DNA of 63,005 bases from an uncultured Pseudomonadales bacterium (GCA_964509285.1 CAZDWQ010000001.1:1-63005), one strand, 5' to 3'. Positions 6,016 to 24,205 are shown, counted from the stretch's first letter. Notes: generated from the letters alone by a model not told the origin. Numbers and translations are program-made.

Positions 6016-7782
6016 TTATTTCTTTACAACATTAAAAAATGCGTTTGTGCACTGATGCCCTGACCACTGTGGAATTCTTAAGTATCCAGGAGCACGTAAG
6101 TTAAATGCTTTACAAAAATCATCACCATTAATAGTAACTCCGTTAATCAAAACTGAATTTGTTCTTCCATCACCCAACGACACAGAGGCACTATTTGCTG
6201 AAGGTATACCACCATATTTAACAGCTATATCTCTCAGCTCACCCAAACTATATGGGTTGCCCCCCCAACACTCTGTAGATATTGAACTTATTCTTTCTGT
6301 TTCACTACTAGATCCATTCTTTAAAACTAAATGTGCATTGACTATGTCTGCCATTTCTTCTGGAGAAAGCCAAGGATTTGACCTACCACATGTGTCTCCT
6401 TTTGGTTTTCCCCATTCACCAAAAACATTTACATACCAAGAAGAATAAGCCCAAGGTGATCCAGCAATAATTTCATATGATTTTTCCAAAAAATTTCCAC
6501 CACCAGATCCATCTATTGTATCCCATCCAGTTCCATTAATCCAACCACCATGTGTTGAAGCATATTGTCCAGTTCCAGAACCACCAGTCATAATCATTCC
6601 TTCTGTTTCTTTAACAGCTTCTTTCCAAGCATCAGTGTTTTCTTCACGCTTAAACTCTTGACAATACTGATTCGGACAAATGCTTGATTTCCCACGCGCA
6701 AACGTTCTGGCTGCAATAGCTTGCGCCTTTAAAACTTCTTTCGGCCAATCTCCTGGAACTTCATAAATATGTTTTAAATAATCCTCAAGTTGATATCTTT
6801 CATTGTTAAAAGATTGTTTGTAAGAGTTTGTGCCATTCACTGTAATACTTTGATTAGTATCAACTTTTTCAAGGTTCACACCTTGATAGTAGTACTTTAA
6901 TACTTGTTCTGCATTTTGTCCTTGGTTCACTCTGCCCAAAGCACCATACTGACTCATGCCATTTCTGTGGCTATATCCACCAAATGAAAAAACTGCAAAG
7001 TAACCACTTGGAGCCTCATTCAAAAAATGAGATCTTGAGGACTTACCAAATGAACCAAATGCCCCTGATCCTAAATTAACCATAAATCCACCACTTCTTG
7101 CATTAATAATTTCTTGCTGACGTGCTGATAAATCTGCAATTTGCCCAGATAAGTCTTTTTGATAATCTTTTGCTTTATCAATTTCACCCTTAAAAAAATC
7201 AGCCTGTTCATCAAGCTTTTTTTCTAAAGCAGTAAGTTGAATTTGATTGTTTTCAAGTCGTTGTTTGTCTGCTTGCAAACTTTTAATATCTTCGCCAATT
7301 GCTTTAATAAACTGGTTGTCCTGATTTTTGACAGATTCTCTATATGCCAAATCTTTTGATAAATCTGCAGCAGACTCTGTTGCCAACACTGCAATCAACG
7401 GAGAATATGTTCTCAAACGCTTGTATTGCTGAGTAATTCTTCTTGAAAAAATTTGGTATTGAACAGTAAGATCAGCCTCTTTTTGCTTAATTTGTTCTGC
7501 TAAATCAGCAGCTTCCTTTTTTGCTTTTACAATAGATGCACGGGCGTTAGCAATTCGTTTTTCTAAAGAATCAACTTCTGCTTCAAGCGGTTTTGTTGCA
7601 TCTTCTGAAAGTTTTTTTAATTTTTCTAGTTCATCAATTTGTTTCTGGAGATCTTCAACTTCATCAGCAAAAACCTGAGAAACCACACCTGGAAAATCTA
7701 TAAACCTATTAGCGCCAATCGCCAAACCGATAACAAGCAGCACTACAAAAACAAACCGGCATACGTTTTTGGGTTTATTCAT
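6016..7782 (-). CDS. SpoIID/LytB-domain cell-wall enzyme with an N-terminal membrane anchor and a long coiled coil
   Basis: N-terminal TM helix (VCRFVFVVLLVIGLAIG), about 200 aa of heptad-rich sequence, then the SpoIID signatures GMSQYGA and EVLKAQAIAARTFA. Confidence 0.75.
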   Translation of the reverse strand: MNKPKNVCRFVFVVLLVIGLAIGANRFIDFPGVVSQVFADEVEDLQKQIDELEKLKKLSEDATKPLEAEVDSLEKRIANARASIVKAKKEAADLAEQIKQKEADLTVQYQIFSRRITQQYKRLRTYSPLIAVLATESAADLSKDLAYRESVKNQDNQFIKAIGEDIKSLQADKQRLENNQIQLTALEKKLDEQADFFKGEIDKAKDYQKDLSGQIADLSARQQEIINARSGGFMVNLGSGAFGSFGKSSRSHFLNEAPSGYFAVFSFGGYSHRNGMSQYGALGRVNQGQNAEQVLKYYYQGVNLEKVDTNQSITVNGTNSYKQSFNNERYQLEDYLKHIYEVPGDWPKEVLKAQAIAARTFARGKSSICPNQYCQEFKREENTDAWKEAVKETEGMIMTGGSGTGQYASTHGGWINGTGWDTIDGSGGGNFLEKSYEIIAGSPWAYSSWYVNVFGEWGKPKGDTCGRSNPWLSPEEMADIVNAHLVLKNGSSSETERISSISTECWGGNPYSLGELRDIAVKYGGIPSANSASVSLGDGRTNSVLINGVTINGDDFCKAFNLRAPGYLRIPQWSGHQCTNAFFNVVKK

Positions 7783-7906
7783 AATTTCTTATTTTATTGT
7801 ACTCAAGCCCAGCTTAAATATCTACTATATCAAACATACTCAGTCAATACATATTTGCACCCTGGCGTGTGCAGAAAAAATAAAGTACAATATCCATAGA
7901 TTTTAT

Positions 7907-9175
7907 ATGAAAAAAATACTTCATATTTTTATTGTTTTCCTATTAGGGCTTAGTTTTCTGCGCACAACAACTCAGGTCCAGGCGGAACAGTGCCCTGCAC
8001 CAATCAATGGCCTTGGAGTAACAATTCCTGAATCACCTTTAACCGAATCTCTTACAATAACTATCGATTTATCATCTAATTGGGAAGAAGAACCACCAAA
8101 AAATTACGAACTCGTTGTTGAGGAAGGTACTGTTAACCAAGCAAAGAGTGTTCCGTTTAAAATTTTTCAAAATGTTACTAACGTTTGCAATAATGGAGAA
8201 GATTGTATTACTGTCAAAGATGGAGTTGTAACATGGACCATTACAAGTGTGGCCGCTTTAACACAAAGTGCTGCAGAAGGTGGTGTTGACACACATACTG
8301 TTGATTTGAACACCATAGGAGAGGACCAGTGTGATGTTGGAACGTATGATGTCACCGATGTAAACAATCCTGGCCCTGGATGTACAGTTAAAGTATATCA
8401 AAATAGAAATGGTGAACAATGTTACTTGAATGAAAGCCAGAGTGCATGTTTTGCAGATGACGTTGCTGTAATAGTAGAAGTCTCAGAACTTAAATCTATT
8501 TCTGGTACTCCATGGAACGATGCTGTTGGTTTGAGAGTTGGACAAGGTGGTGCGCCCGGAGAAGCAGAAGGTGGATCAAAACAAGCAACAAATGGAAAGG
8601 CTTCCCTAACCTTTGTTCCAAACTCAAGTTCTGGTGATGATTTTTTTATTCAAGTCGAGGATAGGGATGATTATAATGAACTATTTCCAAACTGTGAGTT
8701 CACTATAACAACTACACCAGGATGTAATAAGGACCAATGTGAACCAGAAACTGAGTTAGAAATTGGCACCGCTCCAGCATCTGTTGCTCAAGAGGCATTT
8801 TCCCTTTGTAAACAAATCCCAGAAGAACAGGCTGAACAACGAAGTGCCTGTGAGGCTTGTACTGGCGGTGAAGGTGAGTTTGAAGGTAATGAAGGTGTCT
8901 GGACCGCTATTGGGTGTATCAATCGTGAACCACGGGCAATTTTACAAAAATTTATTACCGTTGGTTTAGGCATGTCTGGTGGAGTTGCACTACTCACCTT
9001 TTTAGCTGCTGGTTTTATCTTTAGCACTTCACAAGGTGATCCAAAAGCATACGGAAAAGCTAAAGAAATGATGACTGCTTCTATCGTTGGTATACTATTT
9101 GTTATATTCTCAATAACGATCTTGCAATTCATTGGATATGAAATTCTCAAGATACCAGGATTCGGAGGAGCATAA
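7907..9175 (+). CDS. Secreted Cys-rich protein fused to a C-terminal T4SS-pilin-like (VirB2/TrbC-type) two-helix membrane domain
   Basis: Signal peptide MKKILHIFIVFLLGLSFLRTTTQVQA starts at the ATG at 7907. The C-terminus GGVALLTFLAAGFIFSTSQGDPKAYGKAKEMMTASIVGILFVIF has the same TM, G-x-D/K loop, TM pattern as the pilins at 21-24.6 kb. A TAATG overlap links it to the next gene. Confidence 0.65.
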   Translation: MKKILHIFIVFLLGLSFLRTTTQVQAEQCPAPINGLGVTIPESPLTESLTITIDLSSNWEEEPPKNYELVVEEGTVNQAKSVPFKIFQNVTNVCNNGEDCITVKDGVVTWTITSVAALTQSAAEGGVDTHTVDLNTIGEDQCDVGTYDVTDVNNPGPGCTVKVYQNRNGEQCYLNESQSACFADDVAVIVEVSELKSISGTPWNDAVGLRVGQGGAPGEAEGGSKQATNGKASLTFVPNSSSGDDFFIQVEDRDDYNELFPNCEFTITTTPGCNKDQCEPETELEIGTAPASVAQEAFSLCKQIPEEQAEQRSACEACTGGEGEFEGNEGVWTAIGCINREPRAILQKFITVGLGMSGGVALLTFLAAGFIFSTSQGDPKAYGKAKEMMTASIVGILFVIFSITILQFIGYEILKIPGFGGA

Positions 9176-10185
9176 TGAAGAAGTTGCAGTTATTTTTATT
9201 AATTTTCACTTTCTTTGGATTTATAGTTACTAATTCGTTACAAGTATTTGCTGCAGAACCGTCAGTGTGCGCTGCCGGTGGATTCTGTATGGAAGCAGGT
9301 AACTCTTGCGATGGCGGTGAAATTAAAGACGATGTCGTTTGTACGCCAATACCACCAGATGGACCACCAGGCTGCCAACACGGTGGATACTGTATGAACT
9401 TTAACGTAGGCTGTAGTAATGGTGGAACGACCATTACAGATGCTTCCTGTGTTGATATTCTATTTAACCAAGATGGAGAAGCCTGTTGTTATCAACCTGC
9501 TCCCGCCGGAAAAGCTTGTTGCAACACTGTTGAGCCTCCTCCTTCAGGGCCACCAAACTGCGAAAACGGTGGATACTGTATGAACTTTAACGTAGGCTGT
9601 AGTAATGGTGGAACGACCATTACAGATGCTTCCTGTGTTGATATTTTATTCAATAAAAACGGAAATGCCTGTTGCTACCCACCCGATGCTCCTCCACCAC
9701 CAGCACCTCCAGCTTCCTCTTGTGGATCTCCTGATGAGAGTGGAGCCTGTATAGACAACAACAATAACACAATCCCAGGAGCAATAACCTGTGAAAGGAA
9801 TTCTACTGTATGTTGTAATACTGAAGCAGGATGTGATGACGTTTTTCCTATTGAAAATATCGTAGATGGCCCAAGTAAAGAATTTTTTGATGCACTCAAC
9901 CCTCTTAAAACTGATGGTGATCCTGCACTTTTTGAGCAGCTTTCAACTCCGGGTGGAATTGTTTCTAGAGTGCTTCAGTTTCTATTTCCTCTAGCTGGAC
10001 TTGTTTTGTTTATCATGCTTGTTTGGGGTGGTTTTGAAATACTAGCAAAATCAGCACAAGGAACAAAGGCACTTGAAGCAGGAAAAAATAGAATTACTGC
10101 TGCAATCGTAGGTTTTATGCTTTTGTTTGCAACTTATTGGATGGCGCAAATCATCGAGGCTGTTTTTGGAATTGCTATCGTTTAA
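9175..10185 (+). CDS. Secreted Cys/Pro-rich repeat protein fused to a C-terminal T4SS-pilin-like two-helix domain
   Basis: Signal peptide; two copies of GGYCMNFNVGCSNGGTTITDASCVDILFN; a poly-Pro linker; C-terminus LVLFIMLVWGGFEILAKSAQGTKALEAGKNRITAAIVGFMLLFATYW. Confidence 0.65.
   Translation: MKKLQLFLLIFTFFGFIVTNSLQVFAAEPSVCAAGGFCMEAGNSCDGGEIKDDVVCTPIPPDGPPGCQHGGYCMNFNVGCSNGGTTITDASCVDILFNQDGEACCYQPAPAGKACCNTVEPPPSGPPNCENGGYCMNFNVGCSNGGTTITDASCVDILFNKNGNACCYPPDAPPPPAPPASSCGSPDESGACIDNNNNTIPGAITCERNSTVCCNTEAGCDDVFPIENIVDGPSKEFFDALNPLKTDGDPALFEQLSTPGGIVSRVLQFLFPLAGLVLFIMLVWGGFEILAKSAQGTKALEAGKNRITAAIVGFMLLFATYWMAQIIEAVFGIAIV
9381..9645 (+). repeat. Intragenic direct duplication: 79-bp perfect copies at 9381-9459 and 9567-9645 (period 186 bp, 62 codons)
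   Basis: Read directly. Both copies are cggtggatactgtatgaactttaacgtaggctgtagtaatggtggaacgaccattacagatgcttcctgtgttgatatt. Confidence 0.95.
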
Positions 10186-10940
10186 CCTTTGCCAAACCGT
10201 CTCGTTCTTTTATTGAACTCGATGATAACTTCATCTAGTTGCTCAGCATGCATTTCTGGAAATGTATAGGGAACAAAAACGAACTCTGAATATTGCTGTT
10301 GCCAAGACATAAATCCTGACATTCTATATTCACCACTCGTTCTCACAATAAAATCAGGATCGGGCATGTATGCGGTATCTAAGTTTTGAGCAATCACTTT
10401 CTGTGTGATATCTTCAGGTTTCATTTCACCATTTACAACTTTTTGTGCAATTTTTTTCATAGTCCTCGTAAGTTCGTCGCGACCACCATAGTTCATTGCT
10501 AAAGTTACAGTAAGTTTTGTCTCATTTTTAGTTTTTTCTTCTCCATCTACTATTCTGTCTTGAATATCTTGAGCGAACCCGGTGATATCACCTATCATTT
10601 TGAAGCAAACACCTTTTTCTTTCCATGCATCAATTCTTTTATCGAAAATCTCTCTAAATAAATTCATTAAAAAATCAACTTCTATTTTGTCACGATCCCA
10701 ATTTTCAGTACTAAAAATCCAAAAAGTGAGATATTTTAAGCCAATTTGAATTGAGTGATTAATCAGCTCCTCAAAGTTTTCATGGACTGCCTTTCTGTGA
10801 CCTGCAAAAACTTTCAATCCCTGAGCTCGAGCCCATCTTCTGTTACCATCACAAATAACCGCGATATGTGTTGGAACTGGGCCGATATTCTTTGAATTTT
10901 TTATTTCTGAATTTGACGTGCTTGTAGTTGAATGTACCAT
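10182..10940 (-). CDS. uppS: Isoprenyl transferase (undecaprenyl-diphosphate synthase)
   Basis: HIAVICDGNRRWA, plus the NYGGRDE and RTSGEYRMSGFMSWQ motifs. The ATG at 10940 (MVHSTTS) is preferred. The track's longer ORF runs through a GC hairpin and overlaps tag. Confidence 0.9.
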   Translation of the reverse strand: MVHSTTSTSNSEIKNSKNIGPVPTHIAVICDGNRRWARAQGLKVFAGHRKAVHENFEELINHSIQIGLKYLTFWIFSTENWDRDKIEVDFLMNLFREIFDKRIDAWKEKGVCFKMIGDITGFAQDIQDRIVDGEEKTKNETKLTVTLAMNYGGRDELTRTMKKIAQKVVNGEMKPEDITQKVIAQNLDTAYMPDPDFIVRTSGEYRMSGFMSWQQQYSEFVFVPYTFPEMHAEQLDEVIIEFNKRTRRFGKG

Positions 10941-10948
10941 AGTTATGT

Positions 10949-10965
10949 GCGCGCCTGCGGCGCGC
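10949..10965 (-). promoter_or_regulatory. All-GC 7-bp stem, 3-nt loop hairpin in the tag-uppS spacer
   Basis: gcgcgcc-tgc-ggcgcgc is a perfect inverted repeat. It ends 8 nt upstream of the uppS ATG and has no trailing T-run. Confidence 0.5.
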
Positions 10966-10974
10966 CCTCTCAAT

Positions 10975-11541
10975 TTACACTTGATTATACCTGAAACAAT
11001 CAACTGTATGGTCATTAACCATTCCCGTTGCTTGCATGTGAGCATAGATAATTGTTGGACCTACAAAGGTAAAGCCTCTTTTTTTTAAATCAGCACTAAT
11101 TTTTTGGGAAAGTTCTGTTTGTGCCGGATATTCAGCAACAGTTTTTCGGCTATTTATAATTTGCTTCCCATTTACAAATTGCCACATATACTTTGAAAAA
11201 CTCCCAAACTCTTTTTGAACTGCAAGAAATTTTTGGGCATTAATAATTGCAGATTTTACTTTTAGTTTATTACGAATAATTTCTGGATTTTGAAGCAATT
11301 TTTCGATGTCTTTTTCACTAAATTGAGCAACTTTTTTTACATCCCAGTTCGCAAAAGCTTTTCTATATCCTTCTCTTCGTTTCAAAATTGTTTCCCAAGA
11401 AAGTCCTGCTTGAGCACCCTCTAGTACCAAAAATTCAAACAGTTTTACATCATCAAAAACCGGAACACCCCATTCTTCATCATGATATTTCGCATAATAT
11501 ACATTACCTTTTGGAACCCAACTGCAACGATGTCTGTTCAT
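10975..11541 (-). CDS. tag: DNA-3-methyladenine glycosylase I
   Basis: RCSWVPKGNVYYAKYHDEEWGVPVFDD and LFEFLVLEGAQAGLSW are typical Tag sequences. Confidence 0.9.
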   Translation of the reverse strand: MNRHRCSWVPKGNVYYAKYHDEEWGVPVFDDVKLFEFLVLEGAQAGLSWETILKRREGYRKAFANWDVKKVAQFSEKDIEKLLQNPEIIRNKLKVKSAIINAQKFLAVQKEFGSFSKYMWQFVNGKQIINSRKTVAEYPAQTELSQKISADLKKRGFTFVGPTIIYAHMQATGMVNDHTVDCFRYNQV

Positions 11542-12134
11542 TATTTAAAAAAAGCAACTTTGTATGTACCACTCCAAATATTTTCTAAAATTGGCAGATA
11601 CTTTGTGTTAAAAGATTCTCCATCTGCAATCATTTTTTCTAATGCAACTTGAGAGACAACCCTCACTTCCGATACCTCAGACTCTTCAAAAGTAATTTTC
11701 TCTCCAGAATATTCACCAACAAAATAGTACATAAAATGAGATTCATTCGAATATTCTACAAATTTCTTTGTCAAAAAATGAAGCTGAATATCTTTTAAAT
11801 CAAACTCTTCTGCAAGTTCAATATATGCTGTTTTTTCTGGATCAGCTCCAGCCGGAATATGACCAGCAAGGAGTGACCACATATTTGGATGAACAGATTT
11901 ATATTTACTGCGTTTTTGAATAACAACATTTTTGTTTTTATCAAAGAGTAGTACAGAAATCTCGCGATGAATTAATTTTGGATCTTTATTCGCTATTTCT
12001 CTATTAATTACTCCAATTACAACATCATTTTCGTCAACCAAATCAAGCATTTCTTGGGGAGAGTTTGCTTTTTGGAAATGTTGTTTATTAGAAAAACTCA
12101 TATTTTTTGCTGGTAAATCAACCAAAAAAAACAT
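11541..12134 (-). CDS. Nudix hydrolase, IDI-like fold but lacking the catalytic Cys
   Basis: The pattern LIHREISVLLFDKNKNVVIQKRSKYKSVHPNMWSLLAGHIPAGADPEKTAYIELAEEFDL is present. An alternative start exists at 12101 (MSFSNKQ). Confidence 0.65.
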   Translation of the reverse strand: MFFLVDLPAKNMSFSNKQHFQKANSPQEMLDLVDENDVVIGVINREIANKDPKLIHREISVLLFDKNKNVVIQKRSKYKSVHPNMWSLLAGHIPAGADPEKTAYIELAEEFDLKDIQLHFLTKKFVEYSNESHFMYYFVGEYSGEKITFEESEVSEVRVVSQVALEKMIADGESFNTKYLPILENIWSGTYKVAFFK

Positions 12135-12140
12135 AAAATA

Positions 12141-13148
12141 TTAAAATAAATGTTCTGCAATTTCTTGGGGCTTATCACCTACTTTCGCCGTAAGAGTTTT
12201 TACTACTAGTGACAACGCCGACAATCTCTGAGTAACTACTTCTTCAAATTCTGGCAAAGTTAGAATGTGTACATTGAACCCGGTATTAATTGTAAAGTAA
12301 CATTCAATTCCCTCTTCGCGCATTTTTTGGACCTCTTGCATCACTTGTACTGTACCTGGATACCATAAAACAAGTGGCACTTCACTCGTTAATAAAATAC
12401 TGTGAAACTCTAATGCTTCGGCTTCTACGATTTTTCCTAAAGTTGTAAAGTTTTTTTCTTTGATCGCGTTTTTAACTGCTCCAATTTTTTCTTTTATTTT
12501 TTCTTGTCTCACACTAAAAAACGGACTTGTTTGTGCAGTTGTGTGACCTTCAGTTGAACTAATTTTCTTCATTCCTTCATCAACTACTGCAACCACATCT
12601 CTAATGTCCCAGTGATTTTTGTTAAAAATAGTTTGAGAATACGAAGTATCTGAAGTTTCACCATCAAGCCACTCAACAAATCCACCACATGCACATCTGC
12701 ACGCAGTTCCAGAAGCCTGACGAGATAAAATGCTTAATTCTTTTTCTGATAATTGCAAACCTAGTGCTGCTGCTGCTGCATACGTAAGTGCAGCCATTCC
12801 AGAACCTGAACTTGAAAGACCAGTCCCTCTTGGGAACGTGTTTTTTGATACTACTTTTGCCCGTAAATCTGCACCTTCTAAATTCGCTTGTTTCGCAAGC
12901 ACTCTCAATCTATCTAAGTGTTTACTCACTCTTGCTGCTTCATTAGATGAGTTTTCAATTTCTTCATCTTGAATAAAAACTTGGTCAGCTGTGTAATTTT
13001 TGCTAAACTCAACAGTGGTAATAGTATCTAGCCCATCTAAAATAATAGAAACACTCCCATTTTCTGGTAACCTCAAGACTTCATCTTTTTTGCCCCAATA
13101 CTTTACTAAAGCAATATCGCTTGATGCCTTAATCGTGGTTTTCTTCAT
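12141..13148 (-). CDS. mvaD: Diphosphomevalonate decarboxylase
   Basis: The IALVKYWGKKDE..LPENGSVS start and the GHMP motif PRGTGLSSSGSG are present. Length is 335 aa. Confidence 0.85.
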   Translation of the reverse strand: MKKTTIKASSDIALVKYWGKKDEVLRLPENGSVSIILDGLDTITTVEFSKNYTADQVFIQDEEIENSSNEAARVSKHLDRLRVLAKQANLEGADLRAKVVSKNTFPRGTGLSSSGSGMAALTYAAAAALGLQLSEKELSILSRQASGTACRCACGGFVEWLDGETSDTSYSQTIFNKNHWDIRDVVAVVDEGMKKISSTEGHTTAQTSPFFSVRQEKIKEKIGAVKNAIKEKNFTTLGKIVEAEALEFHSILLTSEVPLVLWYPGTVQVMQEVQKMREEGIECYFTINTGFNVHILTLPEFEEVVTQRLSALSLVVKTLTAKVGDKPQEIAEHLF

Positions 13149-13154
13149 ATTCTG

Positions 13155-14162
13155 TTATTCTCTTCCTTCTATTGTAACCCCTGGAGCCCCTATTGAAACT
13201 TCAATTATTTTTCCGTTGATATTTTCCAAAGCCTTGATCACATTTTCTTTCGTTTCTTCTGATGCAATAGCTAAAATGCAGTCTCCCCCCGCTGCTCCTG
13301 AAGAAGTTGCACCATATGCACCAGCATCTAATGCCGCGCTAATCAAATGCTCTAAACGATTATTACTCACTCCAAGTTCACGGGCACATTCTTGAGATTC
13401 ATTAAATAGATTTCCAAGCTGTTTCCAATCTTCCTTGGCAACAACTTCACCAAATTCTTCTGCCACGGCAGCTATTCTTTTAAAAATAGTGTCAATTCTT
13501 TCTGGGTTCTTGTCTAGCTTTGCGTCGACTAGTCTAATTAAAGTTGGAGTATCTGCTTTCTCGCCAGAATAGGCAATTATGAGTGGTAATTTTGGAAGTT
13601 CGATTGGCTTTACTATTCGTGCAGGACTTACGTAGTAGAGTGTCCCACCCCAAATAGCCGCTGCTAAATCATAACCAGACCCAACTCCTTGTACTTCTGT
13701 AACAGCTTCGTAACAAAACTCAAATAGTTCTTGATTGGTCAATTCAACATCGTACAAGGTAGTTAACGCTTTTGCGAACGCAACTGTAACCGCACTACTA
13801 GAACCAAATCCATAGGTAGAAGAAAAATCACTTCGTGTAGTGACAATAATTCCTTCTTTTTGTGGGTACTTTTCTAAAAAGTTTTTATAAAGAATCTCAA
13901 TAAAGCGGACTGCCTTTGGTAAATCTTTTTTTCCAAGATCTGCCATATCTTTTGTGTATGAAGTTAATCCTAAATCTGGAGCATCAAGATGAAACACATC
14001 GACTCCATTTTTAGTTACCGTGGCAAAAAGTCGTTGATCAACTGCCGTCACAACCGTTGGATATCCATGCACAACTGCATACCCCACAGACAACATAAGT
14101 TTACCAGGAGCAGACGCTGTTACTTGTTTTAAATGTGTGTGTTTAGTCATATTTTTCACCAA
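13155..14162 (-). CDS. mvaK2: Phosphomevalonate kinase (GHMP family)
   Basis: SAPGKLMLSVGYAVVHGYPTVVTAVDQ and GFGSSSA are present. It sits between mvk and mvaD. An alternative start exists at 14150. Confidence 0.75.
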   Translation of the reverse strand: MVKNMTKHTHLKQVTASAPGKLMLSVGYAVVHGYPTVVTAVDQRLFATVTKNGVDVFHLDAPDLGLTSYTKDMADLGKKDLPKAVRFIEILYKNFLEKYPQKEGIIVTTRSDFSSTYGFGSSSAVTVAFAKALTTLYDVELTNQELFEFCYEAVTEVQGVGSGYDLAAAIWGGTLYYVSPARIVKPIELPKLPLIIAYSGEKADTPTLIRLVDAKLDKNPERIDTIFKRIAAVAEEFGEVVAKEDWKQLGNLFNESQECARELGVSNNRLEHLISAALDAGAYGATSSGAAGGDCILAIASEETKENVIKALENINGKIIEVSIGAPGVTIEGRE

Positions 14163-15042
14163 AAGCCCTATTGTACCTTAATCTTGAATTTTCCCAATCG
14201 TTTTGAGTACAAAACCTTTCTACTTTTTTTAAATCCTTGTCATATACTAATATCCAACCAGAACCAGATTTTACGCCTCCTGCACCAGTAATCTTGGCGT
14301 AAGCACCTATTTTTTTAATTTTACTGAGCATTTTTTTTGCTCTCTCACCAACAACATGCAGTTTTTCTAGTTCTTCCTGATTTTGATCAAGTAAGTTACC
14401 CTCAAACGTACCAGAAACCAATTGTTTCTGAATCTGTGCACTTATTTTGCCAATTTTTTTAACCACTTTACTATTTTTGGGATCATTTTTTAGTAACTCT
14501 GCAACTTTTGTTACCATCTCACCAGTGGTTTCTGTTGCAAAACCAGAATTTACTAATAAAAACTCGTATTCTTTGGCAAATTTGAGTTTTCTTTTTTGAA
14601 ACGCACCTGTTTTTAGATTTTTTCTAAAAGAATGAGTACCTCCATATACAACTGCACAAGGATCGATCCCGCTTGGATTTTTGTGAACAAATACTTCTGA
14701 TTTAAAAACTAACTCATACATTTCATCTTGTGAAATTTTAATTGAAAAATATTCGACCAAAGCTTGTATTACAGCATGAGCAAAAGCAGCAGATGAACCC
14801 AATCCAGATTTTTGAGGAATCTGCGAATCAACTTGAATAGCTAATTTGCTTGTATCAACTATAAAATTCTTTGAGAACAAATCAAAAATATGTTGTTCAT
14901 AGCCCGTCCGTTTAATTGTCTTTTCTGATTCAGATAGTGAAACTGAAAGCTCTTTGTCCAAAAATGAGACAAGCGCTGGTTCTCCATACACTACACTGTG
15001 TTCACCGGTAATAATACACTTGCCGTTACTTGTATGTTTCAT
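14143..15042 (-). CDS. mvk: Mevalonate kinase
   Basis: GKCIITGEHSVVYGEPAL and SGLGSSAA (GHMP motif) are present. Length is 299 aa. Confidence 0.85.
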   Translation of the reverse strand: MKHTSNGKCIITGEHSVVYGEPALVSFLDKELSVSLSESEKTIKRTGYEQHIFDLFSKNFIVDTSKLAIQVDSQIPQKSGLGSSAAFAHAVIQALVEYFSIKISQDEMYELVFKSEVFVHKNPSGIDPCAVVYGGTHSFRKNLKTGAFQKRKLKFAKEYEFLLVNSGFATETTGEMVTKVAELLKNDPKNSKVVKKIGKISAQIQKQLVSGTFEGNLLDQNQEELEKLHVVGERAKKMLSKIKKIGAYAKITGAGGVKSGSGWILVYDKDLKKVERFCTQNDWENSRLRYNRAFGEKYD

Positions 15043-15093
15043 AAAAAACGTCTCAATTTGAGATATATTAATAGTCGCAAAAACTCACAAAAA

Positions 15094-15411
15094 TCATGCA
15101 AGTTTGCACGCTTTTAATCCGTAGGGAATTATCGACTTTTCATCAGGAATAGCACTCTTTCGTAGCTCTAATCTAACTTTTTCTCCAACTGTAAACAAAG
15201 TTTTTGCTTCTCCCATGATTTCTATCTTTTGTTTTTGACCATCTTTGAGTACCGGATCTAACTCAACAATTAAAAAACAATATGGTAAAAAATCTTCTAA
15301 CTCTTTTGAAGTAACGTCCAAACGAGTCGAAAATAAAATAGTCCCTGTTTTTCCAAGCAGTTTATGCCAATTTTTGCTGTTTCGATGATACTGTGCGGGT
15401 TGGATATTCAT
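15094..15411 (-). CDS. DUF35-type OB-fold protein (thiolase/HMG-CoA synthase complex partner), no Zn-ribbon
   Basis: The OB-fold pattern GTILFSTRL...PYCFLIVELD...IEIMGEAKTLFTVGEKVRLEL is present. It lies immediately downstream of the thiolase, as in archaeal operons. Confidence 0.6.
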   Translation of the reverse strand: MNIQPAQYHRNSKNWHKLLGKTGTILFSTRLDVTSKELEDFLPYCFLIVELDPVLKDGQKQKIEIMGEAKTLFTVGEKVRLELRKSAIPDEKSIIPYGLKACKLA

Positions 15412-15414
15412 AGG

Positions 15415-16656
15415 TTAGTCCTTTTGCCCAAAATCTTTACTTAAAATATGAACTATCGCAGTTGCACCACTCCCACCAACATTATGTGCGAGTGCATATA
15501 CTTTTTGATTTTTTATGTGTCTGGTTGGCAACTGATCTCGTAATACCTTTGACTGTAATAACTCAGCTAAAAAAGCAACTTGTTTAACTCCAGTTGCTCC
15601 CACTGGATGTCCGCAGGCCTTTAGTCCACCAGAAGGATTTATCACGACTTCTCCACCAAAAGTGGTTCTTCCTTCTGCAATAGCTTTTCCGCCCTCACCT
15701 TTTTTGAAAAAACCTAAGTCTTCACTTGCTAAAATTTCTGCTATGGTAAAACAATCATGCACTTCAACAAAAGAGATATCTTTTGGAGTAATTTTTGCTT
15801 GAACATATGCTTGCTCTGCGGCAAATCTAGTTGCTTGTAACTCTGTTAAACTTTCACGATCAGCTAAACTCAAACTATCTTGGGCATGACCTACCGCCTC
15901 AATCACTGGTTTGTGCTTATATTTTTTGATATCTTTGGTAGTTAAAATTACGGCACTTGCACCATCTGAGACTGGGGAACAGTCAAATAAACGTAGTGGA
16001 TCAGCAATCACCGTACTAGTACTAATAACTGCCACAGGAATTTCCTTTTGAAACTGAGCTTTGGGATTCATTACAGCATGTTTATGATTCTTGCTCGCAA
16101 CTCTTGCGAGTTGCTCGCGCGTTGTTCCAAAAGTTTGCATATGCGCTTGCGCCAGCAATGCATACAAAGCAGGAAAAGTGCTTCCATATTCTTTTTGGTA
16201 CTCACTCGCACCTGATAAAGTTTTCGTTGCATCTTGTGCTAAAGCGTCGGTCATTTTTTCTGCACCTACAACCAGCACTGTCTTATATTTTCCTGAATGC
16301 AGTGCCAACTCTGCTAGTTCTAATGCCATTGCCCCGGAAGCACAGGCTGCTTCAACTCGGAACGCTGGTGGATTATGAGGCAACATTTGTGAAACTAACG
16401 CGTTGAGATGTAGTTGGTTGGTGAACTGGCCTCCGGCCATGTTCGCCACAAAAACCGCATCAATTTCATCCGCAACAAATTTTGACTCAGCAATTTTTGT
16501 TCCGTACTCATGCTCAATATGTTTTTTATCAAATTTTGACCCAAACACAGAATTAAGCGCACCAAAAACTGCTTCTTCAAACAAGCTCTCTAAAGATCTG
16601 TCCCACAACTCTCCAAACTGCGTAATATAGTTACCGATAATTCTAATTTTTTTCAT
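15415..16656 (-). CDS. Archaeal-type acetoacetyl-CoA thiolase
   Basis: Catalytic Cys context VEAACASGAMAL; C-terminal GHPVGATG and NVGGSGA. Confidence 0.8.
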   Translation of the reverse strand: MKKIRIIGNYITQFGELWDRSLESLFEEAVFGALNSVFGSKFDKKHIEHEYGTKIAESKFVADEIDAVFVANMAGGQFTNQLHLNALVSQMLPHNPPAFRVEAACASGAMALELAELALHSGKYKTVLVVGAEKMTDALAQDATKTLSGASEYQKEYGSTFPALYALLAQAHMQTFGTTREQLARVASKNHKHAVMNPKAQFQKEIPVAVISTSTVIADPLRLFDCSPVSDGASAVILTTKDIKKYKHKPVIEAVGHAQDSLSLADRESLTELQATRFAAEQAYVQAKITPKDISFVEVHDCFTIAEILASEDLGFFKKGEGGKAIAEGRTTFGGEVVINPSGGLKACGHPVGATGVKQVAFLAELLQSKVLRDQLPTRHIKNQKVYALAHNVGGSGATAIVHILSKDFGQKD

Positions 16657-16672
16657 AATAACTGTCTTGTAC

Positions 16673-17821
16673 CTAATGGGCGCTGTTTACTCGATACTCT
16701 TCGTAAGAAATAGGCTCTAACTTTTGTAACTGGTCAGACAAAAGTTCAGCCGTTACAACAAAACTTTGGTTGCCCGACTGATCCGTCCATTTTTTTCTAG
16801 CTTGTTCGAGATATTTTGTCGTTTCAAAAATAAATACATCACTTCCAGAGCCAGAACCGTAAGAAACCACTAAAACTTTTTCGCCAGCTTGTGCAATGTC
16901 TAAAGTCGCAGCCAAACCCAACATACTTGAACCTGCGTACGTATTCCCAATTTGAGTCACTAGTAAACTTGCTTCAATTTGCTGACTTGAAAATCCAAGC
17001 TCACGGGCAACCTGAGTTGGAAACTTTGCATTTGGAGTATGAAACACGCAGAATCCGAAGTCTTTAGGTTTTAAATTAGCTTCCTTCATTACCAATTCTG
17101 CAGCCATTTTTATATGAGTGAAATATCCAGGATCAGCGGTAAATCTCCCCGCATGTTCTGGATATGCTTGGTAAGGCCTCCTCCAAAAATCTGGCGTGTC
17201 CGTTGCCACAGAAGTTGTTGCTAGTAGTCGTGCGAGTAGTTTTTGTCCACCATTTTTCTCCGCACCCAAAATATACGCTGCTCCACCTGCTCCAGCCGTA
17301 TACTCTAAGACATCTCCTGGTTTTGCTTGAGCAGTATCTGTTCCTATTGCCATCGCGTACTGGCTAAAACCCGAGCAAACATATAGCAACGCTATCTGCA
17401 TTGCCTGTGTTCCTGCCTTACAAGCAAATTGAAGGTCTGCTAAAGCGAGTGGTGAGGTAACGCCATCGTCAGAACTGTCAGAAGCAATTCCCAAAGCTTG
17501 AGCCACAACTGTTCCTGATGGCTTGACTGCATAAGGATGGCTTTCACTTCCAATAAAAAGCGCTCCAACTTCCTTCCCGATTTTCTTAGAATCAACTGAC
17601 AACTCCAACCGCTCCAAAGCCTGAAACCCGGCTGCAGTAGACAAAGTAATTGTGTCTTCATCAATTCCTGGAACTGTTTTTGATTCAACCCCAAGTGCTT
17701 TAAAAATCTTTTGTTCTGTTTTTCCCTGAGCTGCAGCAACTTGAGATCCCAAAATTTTGAGCCGAGGAATTCGTGCCCCATATGAAACAATACCAACTGA
17801 TGTTTTTTTATTTAAAATCAT
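16673..17821 (-). CDS. Hydroxymethylglutaryl-CoA synthase, short archaeal-type
   Basis: VGIVSYGARIPRLKI start, catalytic Cys region DLQFACKAGTQAM, length 382 aa. It is adjacent to the thiolase and DUF35 genes. Confidence 0.75.
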   Translation of the reverse strand: MILNKKTSVGIVSYGARIPRLKILGSQVAAAQGKTEQKIFKALGVESKTVPGIDEDTITLSTAAGFQALERLELSVDSKKIGKEVGALFIGSESHPYAVKPSGTVVAQALGIASDSSDDGVTSPLALADLQFACKAGTQAMQIALLYVCSGFSQYAMAIGTDTAQAKPGDVLEYTAGAGGAAYILGAEKNGGQKLLARLLATTSVATDTPDFWRRPYQAYPEHAGRFTADPGYFTHIKMAAELVMKEANLKPKDFGFCVFHTPNAKFPTQVARELGFSSQQIEASLLVTQIGNTYAGSSMLGLAATLDIAQAGEKVLVVSYGSGSGSDVFIFETTKYLEQARKKWTDQSGNQSFVVTAELLSDQLQKLEPISYEEYRVNSAH

Positions 17822-17860
17822 TACAAAAAACTTGCGGGAGCTAAAACTAGAGCCAGCAAT

Positions 17861-19135
17861 TCACTTTCTAACTTTTTTTGATCTTCCAAGCTTGGCGTGA
17901 GCACTTGCAAGTGTATTTGTTGTTAACGCAGCAAGCCCAGAAATCTCTCCAGCTAACGCTGCCAAACCTGCCACAACCGCTAGATCTTGAGCTTTTGGCA
18001 ATTCGCTACCGCTTTTTTCACCATTTAGCATGGTTGAACGTGCTTGACTTTGCTTTGGCAACCAAGTTCCCCCACCAACACTTCCAACGCTCACATTCGG
18101 CAAAGTAAGCGCTATATATAAAGTATCTTGTTCTTTGTCATCTGGCTTATCTCCACCCATTAACTCAAAATGAACACTTGCTTCACTCCCTGCAACAACA
18201 TGGGCAACATCTTGACCAGTTGCTAAGTAAAAAGCACCTAAAGCATTAGCAACGTGCATATTTTGAGCAAACGACCCAGCCACATTACTGCCAATCACGT
18301 TTTTAACTAAATGAATCTTCACTAAATCTTTGGCATTTACTTTTAATAACTCTTCTATTTTTTTAACACTAACTTTAGTCTCAACCGTTACAAAGTATCC
18401 TCGCCCCAATAAACGGTTGATCATAGAATCTTTTTTATCAGTACATACGTTTCCAGAAACAGTCAACAAAGAAACCCAAATATGATCTGGCAACTGTCTT
18501 TTAAACTTATCCCATGCATATGACAAGGCAATCGTAACCATGTTCATTCCCATGGCTTCGTCTGTATCAAAGACAAAACGAAAATACAGTAATTTATCTC
18601 TCATAAATGTTTCATAAGATAAAAACTTCAAGTGACTGCTCGTTTCTTCACAAAACCCAGCAAATAACTTACTGTTTTTAGAAAAATACTCACTAAATGT
18701 AACGGCATCATCAATAGAACTACACTCAAAAACCACAGATCTACTCATGCCTACTTTTTTGACAACAACTTTTGTTGTTCCCTCATTTAAAATTTTTAAA
18801 CCTCTATGAATTGAGGCCACCAAAGCTCCTTCCGTTGTTGCTAATGGAATCAGAAATGATTGTTGCTGTTTTTTACTAATTTTTTTATCACTTGAAATAA
18901 AACAAGTTTGAACGTTCACCGGGCCCGCAATCCCAACAGGAACCTCCACAGAGCCAATTAAGTTTTCACAATTTTTTTGCCCCACATCTTCTAAAGGAAA
19001 ACTTGTAGTAAATAGATCACTCAAATCAGATTTGTTTTTATTAGAAACAGCACAAACTAGATCTTGCCTCGTCTTTAGTTTTTCTGCTTCAGAAGATTTT
19101 TCATCACGAATAAAGAAAGATTGTTGTTTTGTCAC
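17861..19135 (-). CDS. HMG-CoA reductase, class I-like motifs
   Basis: TTEGALVASIHRG, DEAMGMNMV and VGSVGGGT match class I signatures (EGxLVAS, DAMGMN, GTVGGGT). GTG start at 19135. Confidence 0.85.
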   Translation of the reverse strand: MTKQQSFFIRDEKSSEAEKLKTRQDLVCAVSNKNKSDLSDLFTTSFPLEDVGQKNCENLIGSVEVPVGIAGPVNVQTCFISSDKKISKKQQQSFLIPLATTEGALVASIHRGLKILNEGTTKVVVKKVGMSRSVVFECSSIDDAVTFSEYFSKNSKLFAGFCEETSSHLKFLSYETFMRDKLLYFRFVFDTDEAMGMNMVTIALSYAWDKFKRQLPDHIWVSLLTVSGNVCTDKKDSMINRLLGRGYFVTVETKVSVKKIEELLKVNAKDLVKIHLVKNVIGSNVAGSFAQNMHVANALGAFYLATGQDVAHVVAGSEASVHFELMGGDKPDDKEQDTLYIALTLPNVSVGSVGGGTWLPKQSQARSTMLNGEKSGSELPKAQDLAVVAGLAALAGEISGLAALTTNTLASAHAKLGRSKKVRK

Positions 19136-19177
19136 AACACATTAGTCGCAAAAAAACAAAAAAATCATGCAAGACTA

Positions 19178-19849
19178 CTATTTTTTATTTACAATTTGTT
19201 TGAAAGCGTCAAAAAGAAGTGAGTTCTGGAGCATAAAAATAGTCCATGGAGCAATTTTCAGTTCTTTTTCACCAATTTTTAAAGAAACTGGCTTTGTATT
19301 TTTTTCTAACTCTTCTTGCGTGAGTAGTAGAGACTGTTCAGGAGAAATATATTCAAGAGTGAGTGCCTTTGCAATTAACTCTTCAAAACCAACCCAACAA
19401 TATTCGCTTGCTTCTTCAGGATTTGGTTGCACTTTTCCTTCATAAGAACCAGTATAAACTTGATCCAGTTCATGCTCTCCATACATTTCATTTCCATATG
19501 CTTTATAGGCAAATTTATAGAGAGGACTCAAATTAAACCCATCAGTAATACCCAACTCAACTTTTAATCTTCTCAGGGCGCAGTCAAAATATGTTTCTGT
19601 TGGCCAAACATTACCACAAACGGTATTTGCCCACCAGTCAGCACCAACAATTTTACTTTTACTGCGTTTTTGAAATAAAACTTGTCCTTTTGAGTTGAAT
19701 AGCCATACCGAGATAGCTAAATGCAATTTTGATGGATATTTATGAGCATTAAATTTGTCATCTCTGCCAATAATAGTTCCATCCAAGTCACAAAGTGAGA
19801 CTTCGTCTTTTTCAATCAATAGTTGCCGCACTGTTTTATCTTCAGTCAT
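19178..19849 (-). CDS. idi: Isopentenyl-diphosphate delta-isomerase, type 1 (Nudix fold)
   Basis: KLHLAISVWLFNSKGQVLFQKRSKSKIVGADWWANTVCGNVWP...RRLKVELGI and GEHELDQVY align by eye to E. coli Idi (LHLAFSSWLFN...NSVCGHP...ENEVCPVF). Confidence 0.8.
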   Translation of the reverse strand: MTEDKTVRQLLIEKDEVSLCDLDGTIIGRDDKFNAHKYPSKLHLAISVWLFNSKGQVLFQKRSKSKIVGADWWANTVCGNVWPTETYFDCALRRLKVELGITDGFNLSPLYKFAYKAYGNEMYGEHELDQVYTGSYEGKVQPNPEEASEYCWVGFEELIAKALTLEYISPEQSLLLTQEELEKNTKPVSLKIGEKELKIAPWTIFMLQNSLLFDAFKQIVNKK

Positions 19850-20392: not shown

Positions 20393-20914
20393 TTACGCAA
20401 CTGACCACAGTTCTTTAAACTCTTTTCTTGCTCTAAATAAATCTGACTCTATTGATTTTTCACTTTTCTTAAACTCTTGAGCAATTGCTATTACTTTTTT
20501 ACCGTCTGCATACTTGAGTAACAATAATTCTTTGTAGTAACTCTTCATTTTTGCTAATACTTGTGTAACTTTTTGTGAAACATCATCACTATCAGAAATG
20601 TGATTCAGCGGAAGTAAATCTGATAATGGAATTGTCTGCAGTGCCTTTTTGGCATATTTTTTTCTAAAATAATCCGCAATTTCATGCCGTGCAATAGAGT
20701 TCATCCACGTCCAAATGCTAGATTTTCCCAAAAAAAGTGGTAAATGCTTTAAACAGTTCAGAAAAGTCTGCTGCACAATTTCTTCGGCATCTTTCTTATT
20801 TGATATTTTCACTCCGACAACATTTAAAAGCCGAGTGTAGTACAAATCAAACCATACTTTAACTGCACGTTCATCGCCTGTTTTAAGTTGAGCTAGTAAT
20901 TGCTTTTCTTCCAT
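20393..20914 (-). CDS. ECF-type RNA polymerase sigma-70 family factor
   Basis: Region 2-like DAEEIVQQTFLNCLKHLPLF and region 4 HTH LLLLKYADGKKVIAIAQEFKKSEKSIESDLFRARKEFKE. The ATG at 20914 (MEEKQ) is preferred, with TACAAT 12 nt upstream. Confidence 0.8.
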   Translation of the reverse strand: MEEKQLLAQLKTGDERAVKVWFDLYYTRLLNVVGVKISNKKDAEEIVQQTFLNCLKHLPLFLGKSSIWTWMNSIARHEIADYFRKKYAKKALQTIPLSDLLPLNHISDSDDVSQKVTQVLAKMKSYYKELLLLKYADGKKVIAIAQEFKKSEKSIESDLFRARKEFKELWSVA

Positions 20915-21008
20915 ACTATTTATTGTATTGTACAACAAAATTTACACCTGCCAGGCAAACTTAGATACTTTCCATCAAGATAAGCCTACTATATAATAGG
21001 GTTACATT

Positions 21009-21380
21009 ATGTTTTTTGGATTAATACCTACCGTCTATGCCCAACAATTGAGTCCTTGTGGAGCAGGCAACGGAGGAATTAACTTAGGAAATTGCCTCAA
21101 GCTTTCAGATAGTACTCAAATAAGCGCTGTGTACGACAATCCTGCATTTTTAGTAAATTTGCTCATTAGCAACCTATTTGTTGTTGCTGGAGTTATCTTT
21201 TTCATTTTTCTCATTGTTGCCGGTTTTAAATTCATAATTGGTGGTCAAAAAGGTGCAGAAGATGCAAAAAACATTATCACAACCGCCATGTCTGGTTTCA
21301 TCATTATGTTTGCTGCATACTGGGTCATTCAGATTGTTGTCTTATTAACAGGAATAACTATTGCAGGAGTAAGTCAATAA
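21009..21380 (+). CDS. T4SS pilin-like protein (VirB2/TrbC-type two-helix), paralog 1
   Basis: Signal-like N-terminus, then FVVAGVIFFIFLIVAGFKFIIGGQKGAEDAKNIITTAMSGFIIMFAAYW. Confidence 0.7.
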   Translation: MFFGLIPTVYAQQLSPCGAGNGGINLGNCLKLSDSTQISAVYDNPAFLVNLLISNLFVVAGVIFFIFLIVAGFKFIIGGQKGAEDAKNIITTAMSGFIIMFAAYWVIQIVVLLTGITIAGVSQ

Positions 21381-21382
21381 AT

Positions 21383-21766
21383 ATGTCAATATTTACTATC
21401 TCGAAAGTATTTGCACAAACTCCAGAAGAAATGATAGGAGAAATTGAAATCCCGAAAGGTGTTGATCTTATTAACACACAAGCTGGTGGTATAGGTATCA
21501 TTTTATTCGTCTCTAAAATAATTCGTTTTATCATCATTCTAGGGGGCATTTGGACATTAATAAATATTATTTTTGCTGCATTTTTATATTTTAACGGTGG
21601 AGGAAAATCAGATACGCATAGTAAGGTAAGTAGTAAATTTACCATGAGCGTCATCGGATTGATGCTCATCATCATTTCCTATACTGCGGCAGCACTGATT
21701 GGATTACTCTTCTATGGAGACGCAACCTTTATCTTAACACCAAAAATCACTCCTATTGGAGGATAG
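21383..21766 (+). CDS. T4SS pilin-like protein, paralog 2
   Basis: IWTLINIIFAAFLYFNGGGKSDTHSKVSSKFTMSVIGLMLIIISY. It starts 2 nt after paralog 1. Confidence 0.7.
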   Translation: MSIFTISKVFAQTPEEMIGEIEIPKGVDLINTQAGGIGIILFVSKIIRFIIILGGIWTLINIIFAAFLYFNGGGKSDTHSKVSSKFTMSVIGLMLIIISYTAAALIGLLFYGDATFILTPKITPIGG

Positions 21767-21773
21767 GAAACGT

Positions 21774-22349: not shown

Positions 22350-22385
22350 TGAGTATTTGGTATATAATAGAATAAAGAAAATAAT

Positions 22386-22757
22386 ATGATCTTACCAACA
22401 CTGATAGCACAACTTGGCAGTTTTGAATCATTTTCACCACTCACAGACGGTGCAAAAGAAAATCCAGGCGAAAATATAGAAACACTCATTTCTAACGTTT
22501 TTGGTTTTCTGACTATTGTTGGTGCAATTTTCTTTATTGTATCTTTTTTAATCGCAGCAATGGAGTGGATTACTTCCGGAGGTGATGCTGGCAAATTAAC
22601 TAACTCGAGAAATAAAATGATGCAGGGAATCTTGGGTTTAATTATTTTGGTTGCAGCATATGGAATTATCGGGCTTATTGGAAGCTTAATTGGTATTAAA
22701 TTACTTGAACCAGCACTATTGCTTGAAAGTATTACTCCAGGACAAGCCACTCCATGA
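22386..22757 (+). CDS. T4SS pilin-like protein, paralog 4
   Basis: FFIVSFLIAAMEWITSGGDAGKLTNSRNKMMQGILGLIILVAAY. Confidence 0.75.
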   Translation: MILPTLIAQLGSFESFSPLTDGAKENPGENIETLISNVFGFLTIVGAIFFIVSFLIAAMEWITSGGDAGKLTNSRNKMMQGILGLIILVAAYGIIGLIGSLIGIKLLEPALLLESITPGQATP

Positions 22758-23679: not shown

Positions 23680-23695
23680 AAAAAGAAATAGAAAC

Positions 23696-24196: not shown

Positions 24197-24205
24197 ATAA
24201 TTTGA

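Follow-up and report, generated by a model that had tools for sequence, protein, structure and literature searches.

A PF18895 pilin-type hairpin joined to large ectodomains in two predicted surface proteins of a Patescibacteria type IV secretion-like locus

Type IV secretion system (T4SS) loci of Patescibacteria carry arrays of VirB2-like pilins near virB4 and dnaA, and the mean identity within such arrays is ~25% (PMC12102498). Papers on these systems and their pilin arrays report small pilins only (PMC12102498, PMC12857230, PMC10633639). The pilins of Southlakia (SEML1_0014-0019) are ~104–190 amino acids (aa) in length and were annotated by structure (PMC10633639 supplement), and the array is essential (PMC10633639). 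The present analysis concerns two adjacent genes, A (7907–9175, plus strand) and B (9175–10185, plus strand), in a 63,005-nucleotide (nt) stretch of DNA (GCA_964509285.1, CAZDWQ010000001.1:1–63005; hereafter the window) from an uncultured ultrasmall bacterium of a Patescibacteria lineage. The products of A and B share with the described arrays a hairpin of Pfam family PF18895, a signal peptide, the type of locus (VirB4, PrgI/VirB3-like, M23 and dnaA) and the presence of divergent paralogues. However, the described pilins are small, whereas A and B, each present in a single copy, add ectodomains of 315 and 230 aa, and their hairpins are much better conserved than the array paralogues of the described systems. 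Synteny puts A and B, as a conserved pair, at the head of a chromosomal T4SS-like pilin cluster in this Patescibacteria lineage.

The last ~75 residues of A and of B are predicted to form the same PF18895 helix-loop-helix hairpin as eight small pilins (121–197 aa) encoded by an array on the same strand (21009–24639, plus strand). The PF18895 model (T4SS_pilin; cutoff 26.6 bits) matches B with 28.1 bits and A with 25.9 bits, just under the cutoff (E 1e-5), and 89 of 90 A relatives match it at E ≤ 0.01, the best at 5e-9. Of the eight array pilins five are above the cutoff, two match weakly and one is missed. Hidden Markov models (HMMs) of the C-terminal 85 residues were made from A relatives and from B relatives, with the window proteins excluded, and compared at E ≤ 10 with the 209 open reading frames (ORFs) of the window that are 50 aa or longer. 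Each model matches exactly ten ORFs, namely A, B and the eight array pilins, and neither matches the multi-pass VirB6-like protein or any other membrane protein among the 209. The closest paralogue of B is the array gene at 21009–21380 (E 2.2e-17 with the B hairpin model). With hhalign, the A family aligns to 116 small pilins with a probability of 97.4% (E 9.9e-12, A residues 340–412) and to the B family with one of 90.6% (E 1.3e-6). All ten hairpins align in register: an amphipathic lead-in precedes a first helix ending in AG(F), the loop has the form (T/S)SGGD..K..A(K/R), and the second helix contains an invariant glycine. The loop has a median of 3–4 lysine and arginine residues and is net positive in 119 of 120 B relatives and in 43 of 90 A relatives. 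An earlier description made from the DNA alone (the sequence-only reading) had matched both C-terminal modules to the pilin consensus and proposed that they be modelled against the small pilins. The match is borne out by PF18895, by the leave-self-out HMMs and by hhalign, and both modules model as long two-helix hairpins that are profile-homologous to the eight small pilins. The AlphaFold2 helices span residues 342–374 and 379–413 of A (predicted local distance difference test, pLDDT, ~70–83) and 259–291 and 297–331 of B (pLDDT 82–95), and hydropathy places hydrophobic segments at ~349–375 and ~385–417 of A and at ~260–295 and ~309–336 of B.

Short hydrophobic profiles do draw spurious matches, such as those to MatE and WLS-like_TM, and the likeness might be the generic hydrophobic resemblance of any two transmembrane (TM) segments, with A and B as unrelated surface proteins. 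This explanation is effectively refuted by the restriction of the leave-self-out models to the ten pilin-module ORFs, to the exclusion of all other membrane proteins in the window, by the hhalign score (E 1e-11), by the common loop motif and register and by the conserved synteny. By homology and context, A and B belong to the PF18895 family. They show its signal peptide, its two hydrophobic helices, its short basic loop and its VirB4-type neighbourhood, and break only its small size (~100–200 aa, single domain) with lengths of 422 and 336 aa. They are widespread and conserved proteins whose function we infer. One of the array pilins (21756–22349, plus strand; 197 aa) has a six-cysteine insert of its own between signal peptide and hairpin (CSYIGQCIDNKRCICVVLGGECYSNQPELILSDQPC), so that the pilins of this locus form a continuum in their N-terminal decoration.

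The genomic linkage of A and B was surveyed in 80 loci, each from a different species-representative Patescibacteria genome, with ±10 kb fetched per genome. The loci are titled Pacebacteria/Paceibacterota, Woesebacteria, Microgenomates or 'Patescibacteria group', and were annotated with the window proteins and the pilin HMMs; 73 are informative downstream of A and 71 upstream. The title 'uncultured Pseudomonadales bacterium' is borne by many metagenome-assembled genomes (within L007–L083) whose gene content and synteny clearly mark them as Patescibacteria, and the same set of records includes one titled TM6, one Limisphaerales and one Methylococcaceae; these titles look like mislabelled public taxonomy.

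In all 73 loci with downstream sequence the gene after A is of the B type, mostly with −4 to +6 nt between the stop of A and the start of B. In 29 of them the pair is directly contiguous with the small-pilin array or with T4SS genes, so that linkage to the T4SS locus, on which the sequence-only reading had staked its interpretation, is very strong. In nine loci a same-strand small-pilin array comes next, followed by a homologue of a 1118-aa protein and, in most, by a homologue of a 364-aa protein; a VirB6-like ORF lies within the fetched DNA in one of the nine (L064). In 20 loci the pair is followed by the 1118-aa homologue, the 364-aa gene and a VirB6-like gene, and no small pilin is present in the 17–21 kb examined. 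In 40 loci, as in the window, the pair is followed by a minus-strand block that starts with UPPS and variably includes mevalonate genes, and in this layout a sigma factor gene and the small-pilin array often come after the block. The block of the window (10182–19849, minus strand) consists, according to Pfam, of UPPS, 3-methyladenine glycosylase, NUDIX and a complete mevalonate operon, and A and B are separated from the pilin array by 11 kb and from virB4 by 38 kb. The operon had been described as separating the two genes from the rest of the system; Pfam confirms its identity and orientation, and the separation is lineage-specific. In relatives, the variants of the block range from the full operon through UPPS, kinase and NUDIX only to nothing, and where the full mevalonate operon is missing the array starts ~4–6 kb past B. 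The 11-kb gap is therefore a lineage-specific insertion of UPPS and mevalonate genes, with A and B ancestral to the locus, since many relatives have a much shorter block or none.

Gene A encodes 422 aa (ATG at 7907, TAA at 9173–9175), the ORF and start codon having been read directly, and comprises a signal peptide, two immunoglobulin (Ig)-like domains, a Cys-rich neck, the PF18895-type hairpin and a conserved tail. The signal peptide (7907–7984, plus strand; aa 1–26, MKKILHIFIVFLLGLSFLRTTTQVQA) has a hydrophobic stretch at residues 3–23. The likely cleavage site, Ala26, is at least 90% conserved in the A family (90 homologues) and in the B family. Hydrophobic N-termini and the conserved Ala26 uphold the signal peptides that had been assigned to both proteins, and A and B are predicted to be Sec-type exported proteins. 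The AlphaFold2 model of A, made from an input alignment of 90 sequences, has a mean pLDDT of 86.4. In this model residues ~30–137 and ~138–272 form tandem Ig-like beta-sandwiches (Ig1 and Ig2; 7994–8722, plus strand), all-beta and mostly with pLDDT >90. The ectodomain is Ig-like, as is typical of adhesins, and adhesin-like in a generic sense, because a Foldseek search of the PDB with the model returned only tandem Ig or FN3 chains (including Fab light chains; E ~1e-6) and because a few A-family members match Big_1, Invasin_D3 or Filamin in Pfam. The Foldseek matches to the PDB are generic tandem-Ig matches from which no specific adhesin family can be named.

A flexible linker joins the modelled beta-sandwiches to the Cys-rich neck (8795–8929, plus strand; aa 297–341), which has the pattern FSLCxQIP...GVWTAIGCI and the invariant cysteines C301, C315, C318 and C337. 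Gene A encodes 14 cysteines in all (3.3%), every one of them N-terminal to residue 338, and in the family alignment twelve are invariant or nearly so. The last part of the gene (8930–9172, plus strand) encodes the helix-loop-helix at aa 342–413 and then the tail ILKIPGFGG(A), of which ILKIPGFGG is nearly invariant by motif counts in relatives. The A family has 331 matches in a 90%-clustered database, nearly all of them full-length at 380–460 aa. In an exhaustive 50%-cluster library it has 1,297 representatives at E ≤ 1e-30, 6,222 at ≤ 1e-10 and 14,111 at ≤ 1e-3, the last figure taking in plain pilins matched via the hairpin. A search with a profile of the ectodomain only gave 7 matches, every one a full-length A, although this search is insensitive owing to its word prefilter and stand-alone ectodomains could escape it. 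The sequence-only reading had called the architecture unusual. It is undescribed in the literature searched, which covered Patescibacteria T4SSs, PF18895 and fusions of pilins with adhesins and contained no description of such fusions, but with 1,297 clusters at E ≤ 1e-30 it is common in this clade.

The junction at which the two genes would be translationally coupled (9164–9177, plus strand) consists of a GGAGGA Shine-Dalgarno sequence (9164–9169) and, 3' of it, the TAATG stop/start overlap (9173–9177) pointed out earlier, which reads as described. Gene B starts with the ATG at 9175 and encodes 336 aa: a signal peptide, cysteine-rich modules, a Pro-rich spacer, conserved pre-helices and the PF18895 hairpin. 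Its Cys-rich ectodomain (9253–9840, plus strand; aa 27–222) contains 24 cysteines (7.1%), all in residues 32–220, and includes the spacer and a membrane-proximal module. The spacer, PPDAPPPPAPPA (9676–9717, plus strand; residues 168–181), is the poly-Pro linker that had been recognised in one of the two proteins. Both ectodomains had also been described as Cys-rich and 250–380 aa in length. This description suits the composition of B, but A is only moderately Cys-rich, and the lengths are ~315 aa for A and ~230 aa for B. Disulfide-rich folds, the prediction of which had been proposed, were obtained for the four-Cys neck of A and for the proximal six-Cys module of B (aa 183–220, modelled as 183–222; pLDDT >90), but not for the N-terminal modules of B, which have few homologues and a pLDDT <50. 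The AlphaFold2 model of B has a mean pLDDT of 72, and its confident parts are the proximal module, the pre-helices and the hairpin.

Part of the B ectodomain arose by a recent tandem duplication (9361–9683, plus strand). The two 137-nt copies (9361–9497 and 9547–9683; period 186 nt) are 88% identical, and both encode GGYCMNFNVGCSNGGTTITDASCVDILFN..G.ACCY. Wastewater samples hold this genome (runs X1 and X2), and in the source-like metagenome of run X1 short-read contigs break at this duplication; comparison of metagenome contigs with the A–B region showed its presence and the break in the B repeat, and no structural variants. With other contigs of the same wastewater sample, the match to B is confined to the sequence encoding the hairpin, at <90% identity, which points to relatives in the same sample whose hairpins are conserved and whose ectodomains cannot be aligned.

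The C-terminal core of B (9841–10182, plus strand) consists of the pre-helices (aa 223–258; FDxLNPL...LSTPGGIVSR) and the hairpin (aa 259–336). B relatives are 55–78% identical over the C-terminal ~105 residues only, and their N-termini are hypervariable in length. Across the 73 loci, which represent different species, B is 104–543 aa long with 0–42 cysteines; in many relatives it is a plain pilin of 104–190 aa, and the large extension is lineage-variable. An N-terminal extension joined to a pilin, for which a survey of relatives had been suggested, is therefore uniform for A, which is full-length throughout, but not for B. Numbers of N-terminal cysteines in B relatives peak at 6 (43 of 120) and 12 (18 of 120), which suggests that these N-termini are built of six-cysteine modules that differ in spacing. 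One uniform type of module is not claimed for B, as only 402 of the 1,325 N-terminal cysteines of B relatives fit one regular expression for a '6-Cys module'. In the databases, relatives of A and B are labelled 'hypothetical' or 'pilin'.

The universality of the B core, the best conserved of the pilin modules, raises the question of whether B could be the major pilin, with a lineage-specific Cys-rich extension coating the fibre, A as the sole specialised adhesin subunit and the array pilins as variable minor ones. In 20 of the 73 loci the 17–21 kb examined contain no pilin-module gene other than A and B, and there B is usually short (147–243 aa in 11 loci, 290–357 aa in 9); about a quarter of the B proteins across the 73 loci are cysteine-free. 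However, arrays may sit elsewhere in those 20 genomes, beyond the 17–21 kb, a major pilin that is exposed usually belongs to the more variable subunits, and an extension of 230 aa on every subunit is sterically demanding. This arrangement, which is compatible with most of what is proposed below, seems quite unlikely.

Constraint is distributed very unevenly along both proteins. Expressed as the median identity of relatives to the window protein, it rises in A from 20% in Ig1 and 23% in Ig2 to 56% in the neck, 63% in the hairpin and 88% in the tail, and in B from 20% in the N-terminal modules and 27% in the proximal module to 39% in the pre-helices and 66% in the hairpin. The hairpins of both are thus ~3 times more conserved than the ectodomains. 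Such a pattern would be expected of an assembly module whose passenger is exposed and evolves fast, as is seen in type IV pilins, rather than of a passive anchor, and the difference between 63–66% in the hairpins and ~20% in the ectodomains argues that the hairpin is closer to the former.

Strong conservation of the hairpin would equally fit docking to a conserved machine. A and B could then be static accessories of a T4SS channel, docked by the hairpin to a VirB6/VirB3/VirB4-like complex or merely anchored by it, with the ectodomains as a wall-spanning stalk or adhesin and no polymer formed. A tight helical lattice is awkward for large ectodomains, and monoderm conjugation systems are generally without pili yet have small 'pilin-like' hairpin proteins. 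Among the latter are the Mbov_0395 pilin-like conjugal transfer proteins (NF045849), small hairpin proteins of monoderm elements that, unlike A and B, lack an ectodomain. At a curated cutoff of 40 bits, NF045849 scores 33.7 bits with the best window pilin (E 2e-8) and 17.1 bits with A (E 3e-3), and does not match B. On a Pontibacillus sp. plasmid (NZ_CP062975.1; L086, 351801–358115) an Mbov_0395 gene precedes the genes for a CD1110-type VirB4 and an M23 peptidase by ~4 kb, and the pilin-like gene of this Firmicutes megaplasmid matches a window pilin in tblastn (E 1e-3). This suggests that monoderm T4SSs have long included the hairpin protein. Nevertheless, loci with up to 10 or more paralogous hairpin proteins are more easily explained by a polymer than by docking at a fixed stoichiometry, and passive anchoring leaves unexplained both the 63–66% identity of the hairpins and the invariant PGFGG of the A tail. 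The static alternative is accordingly regarded as somewhat unlikely.

Upstream of A, a divergent gene (6016–7782, minus strand) encodes a membrane-anchored coiled coil with a SpoIID/LytB domain (Pfam SpoIID, E 7.6e-14; TIGR02669, 85.1 bits, above cutoff), in agreement with the coiled-coil SpoIID-like wall enzyme reported next to the pair. By family its product is a putative lytic transglycosylase. The gene lies divergently upstream of A in all 71 loci with upstream sequence. The resulting layout (SpoIID minus, A plus, B plus) is tighter than the link of A and B to any single T4SS gene, and the whole region from Fic, kinase and RecF-like genes through dnaA is syntenic in the clade. On this basis A and B might work mainly with the SpoIID-like enzyme in wall remodelling or division, for example as membrane scaffolds, their nearness to T4SS genes reflecting inherited near-origin gene order. 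This is very unlikely, as the hairpins of A and B are specific homologues of T4SS pilins and as, where the insertion is missing, A and B run on the same strand straight into pilins or T4SS genes. Moreover, a SpoIID-type transglycosylase could serve a T4SS as a VirB1 analogue, so adjacency to it is no argument against a T4SS role. The protein could be the wall-opening enzyme of this system in that capacity; most Patescibacteria with VirB2 homologues lack VirB1 according to a 2025 survey (PMC12102498).

The remainder of the locus begins with a gene for an extracytoplasmic function (ECF)-type sigma-70 factor (20393–20938, minus strand; TIGR02937, 61.7 bits), which is divergent from the array of small pilins; among relatives with the UPPS-type layout, many have a homologous sigma gene ahead of the array. 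The array is followed by the genes for the 1118-aa protein, which is secreted and contains cysteines (24684–28040, plus strand), and for the 364-aa protein (28068–29162, minus strand). Both are conserved, and neither is matched by Pfam or NCBIfam. They are predicted to be conserved parts of the T4SS locus because their homologues follow the pilins or A–B in most relatives whose sequence reaches that far; homologues of these two genes and of a 536-aa gene directly follow A–B or the pilins in relatives. A multi-pass VirB6-like candidate (29295–30905) has no family match and is labelled from topology and position only. Further on are a giant protein with an M23 peptidase (39662–44497; Pfam), a PrgI/VirB3-like protein (45564–46736, plus strand; PF12666, 27.4 bits), VirB4 (48035–50176; Pfam) and, after VirB4, dnaA, which starts at 50360. 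The PrgI/VirB3-like protein carries a C-terminal CarboxypepD_reg-like (Ig-like) domain and is a second T4SS membrane component in the locus with an added beta-sandwich domain. In its content of VirB4, PrgI/VirB3-like, M23 and dnaA genes the window agrees with published Patescibacteria T4SS loci. VirB5, VirB7, VirB9 and VirB10 were not matched among the locus proteins scanned with Pfam.

A promoter-like element lies upstream of A (7855–7891, plus strand; TTTGCACCCTGGCGTG-N-GTACAAT) and is also found upstream of A in four of the relatives (L013, L016, L018 and L035). A similar element precedes the ECF sigma gene (20927–20958, minus strand), and the form common to both is TTTGC(N0-3)CTGGCR-N15-17-(G)TACAAT. 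A related match (37419–37445, minus strand) occurs within the T4SS locus, between two divergent genes. In the window the core CTGGC-N14-20-TAMAAT is present four times, compared with 0.61 expected. A generic scan for sigma-70 promoters and terminators around A–B gave results at or below chance. The shared element may be a faint sign of co-regulation.

Canonical VirB2-type pilins have no large N-terminal domain. With the VirB2/TrbC/TraA group (PF04956), A and B have in common the signal peptide, the two hydrophobic helices, the short basic loop and a VirB4 ATPase nearby. The similarity appears only weak at the sequence level. PF04956 matches 14 of the 116 small pilins, all sub-threshold (best E 2.8e-5), and CagC matches 3, but neither A nor B is matched by PF04956 at E ≤ 0.1, nor are A relatives at E ≤ 0.01. 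Three grounds tie the hairpins to canonical VirB2/TrbC: these sub-threshold matches, the name of the Pfam family and the annotation published for the Southlakia pilins, which was based on structure. The domain-bearing minor or tip pilins of type IV pili and of type II secretion pseudopili, like the VirB5 tip proteins of Gram-negative T4SSs, offer a functional analogy only: they are low-copy proteins with a conserved module and a variable exposed domain, encoded at the head of a cluster. Type IV pilins have an unrelated fold and the opposite polarity, with an N-terminal helix and a prepilin-peptidase site, whereas the module of A and B is C-terminal; VirB5, unlike A and B, is without a membrane hairpin. 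The tandem Ig-like ectodomains of A resemble those of sortase-assembled pilins and of invasin/intimin Big_1 adhesins, and anchoring or assembly through a helical hairpin would replace the sortase route of Gram-positive pilins. Lipoprotein, prepilin and sortase anchoring of A and B were each considered and rejected. A lipobox is absent, no class III signal (G|F/M-xxx-E) is present in the first 40 residues of A or B, and no LPXTG sorting signal is present in A, B or 240 relatives.

Based on these observations, A and B are proposed to be ectodomain-bearing subunits of a T4SS-associated, VirB2-like fibre or conduit that display adhesin-like domains as a low-copy A:B unit. After cleavage of the signal peptide, both proteins would sit in the membrane like VirB2-type propilins, with the N-terminal ectodomain outside, the K/R-rich loop inside and the C-terminus outside. 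The VirB4/PrgI/VirB6-like machine would then take up their hairpins along with those of the small pilins and assemble a surface fibre or short conduit, from which the Ig-like domains of A and the Cys-rich domains of B would project outward for host-cell contact. The A:B unit could act as a tip or initiator, in a role like that of VirB5 or of the domain-bearing minor pilins of type IV pili; alternatively, the B core may be the principal pilin. A low-copy unit is favoured because the cluster opens with A and B, which are coupled and present once each, and because a domain on every subunit would be sterically demanding. The display of proteins by a pilin-type anchor, as first suggested by the sequence-only reading, gains support from the hairpin homology, the linkage and the Ig-like ectodomain of A, and display and polymerisation are what we infer from them.

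Several points weigh against this proposal. We know of no PF18895 protein for which a filament has been shown so far. PF04956, as noted above, matches neither A nor B and reaches the small pilins only below threshold. Sequence-profile searches of the PDB with the ten window hairpins and the 116 small pilins returned no solved pilin and only chance TM matches, and Foldseek of the B model against the PDB gave generic helical hairpins only (E ≥ 1), this fold being too simple to discriminate. Domains of 230–315 aa on each subunit may not fit a VirB2-type lattice, and the assumption that A and B are minor subunits is therefore forced. Synteny in reduced genomes can persist without a functional link, and the sequencing runs listed are DNA metagenomes only (wastewater and sludge). 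Finally, the cultivated Saccharibacteria system has small pilins only (PMC10633639 supplement), so the essentiality result does not transfer directly to A and B. Taken as a whole chain, the proposal is considered about as likely to be right as wrong. A stronger version, in which a 1:1 A–B unit from an undescribed class of domain-bearing VirB2-type pilins nucleates and caps the T4SS fibre of Microgenomatia-type Patescibacteria and replaces the missing VirB5, and in which its fast-evolving Ig-like and cystine-rich domains decide to which host cell the episymbiont attaches or into which it injects, is speculative and unlikely.

Patescibacteria account for much of bacterial diversity and apparently live attached to other cells. 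The chromosomal T4SS proved essential in the only system of this kind tested (PMC10633639). A and B are predicted to be the only proteins of the locus that join a pilin module to sizeable, fast-evolving, adhesin-like surface domains. If they are only static anchors, their assignment would still be a useful annotation for >1,000 clusters of 'hypothetical' proteins. If the proposal is correct, they would represent the first VirB2-type pilins with a folded passenger domain of which we are aware, which would matter for pilus architecture and for engineered display, and, if displayed on a T4SS fibre, the domains of A and B would be prime candidates for host recognition in these bacteria.

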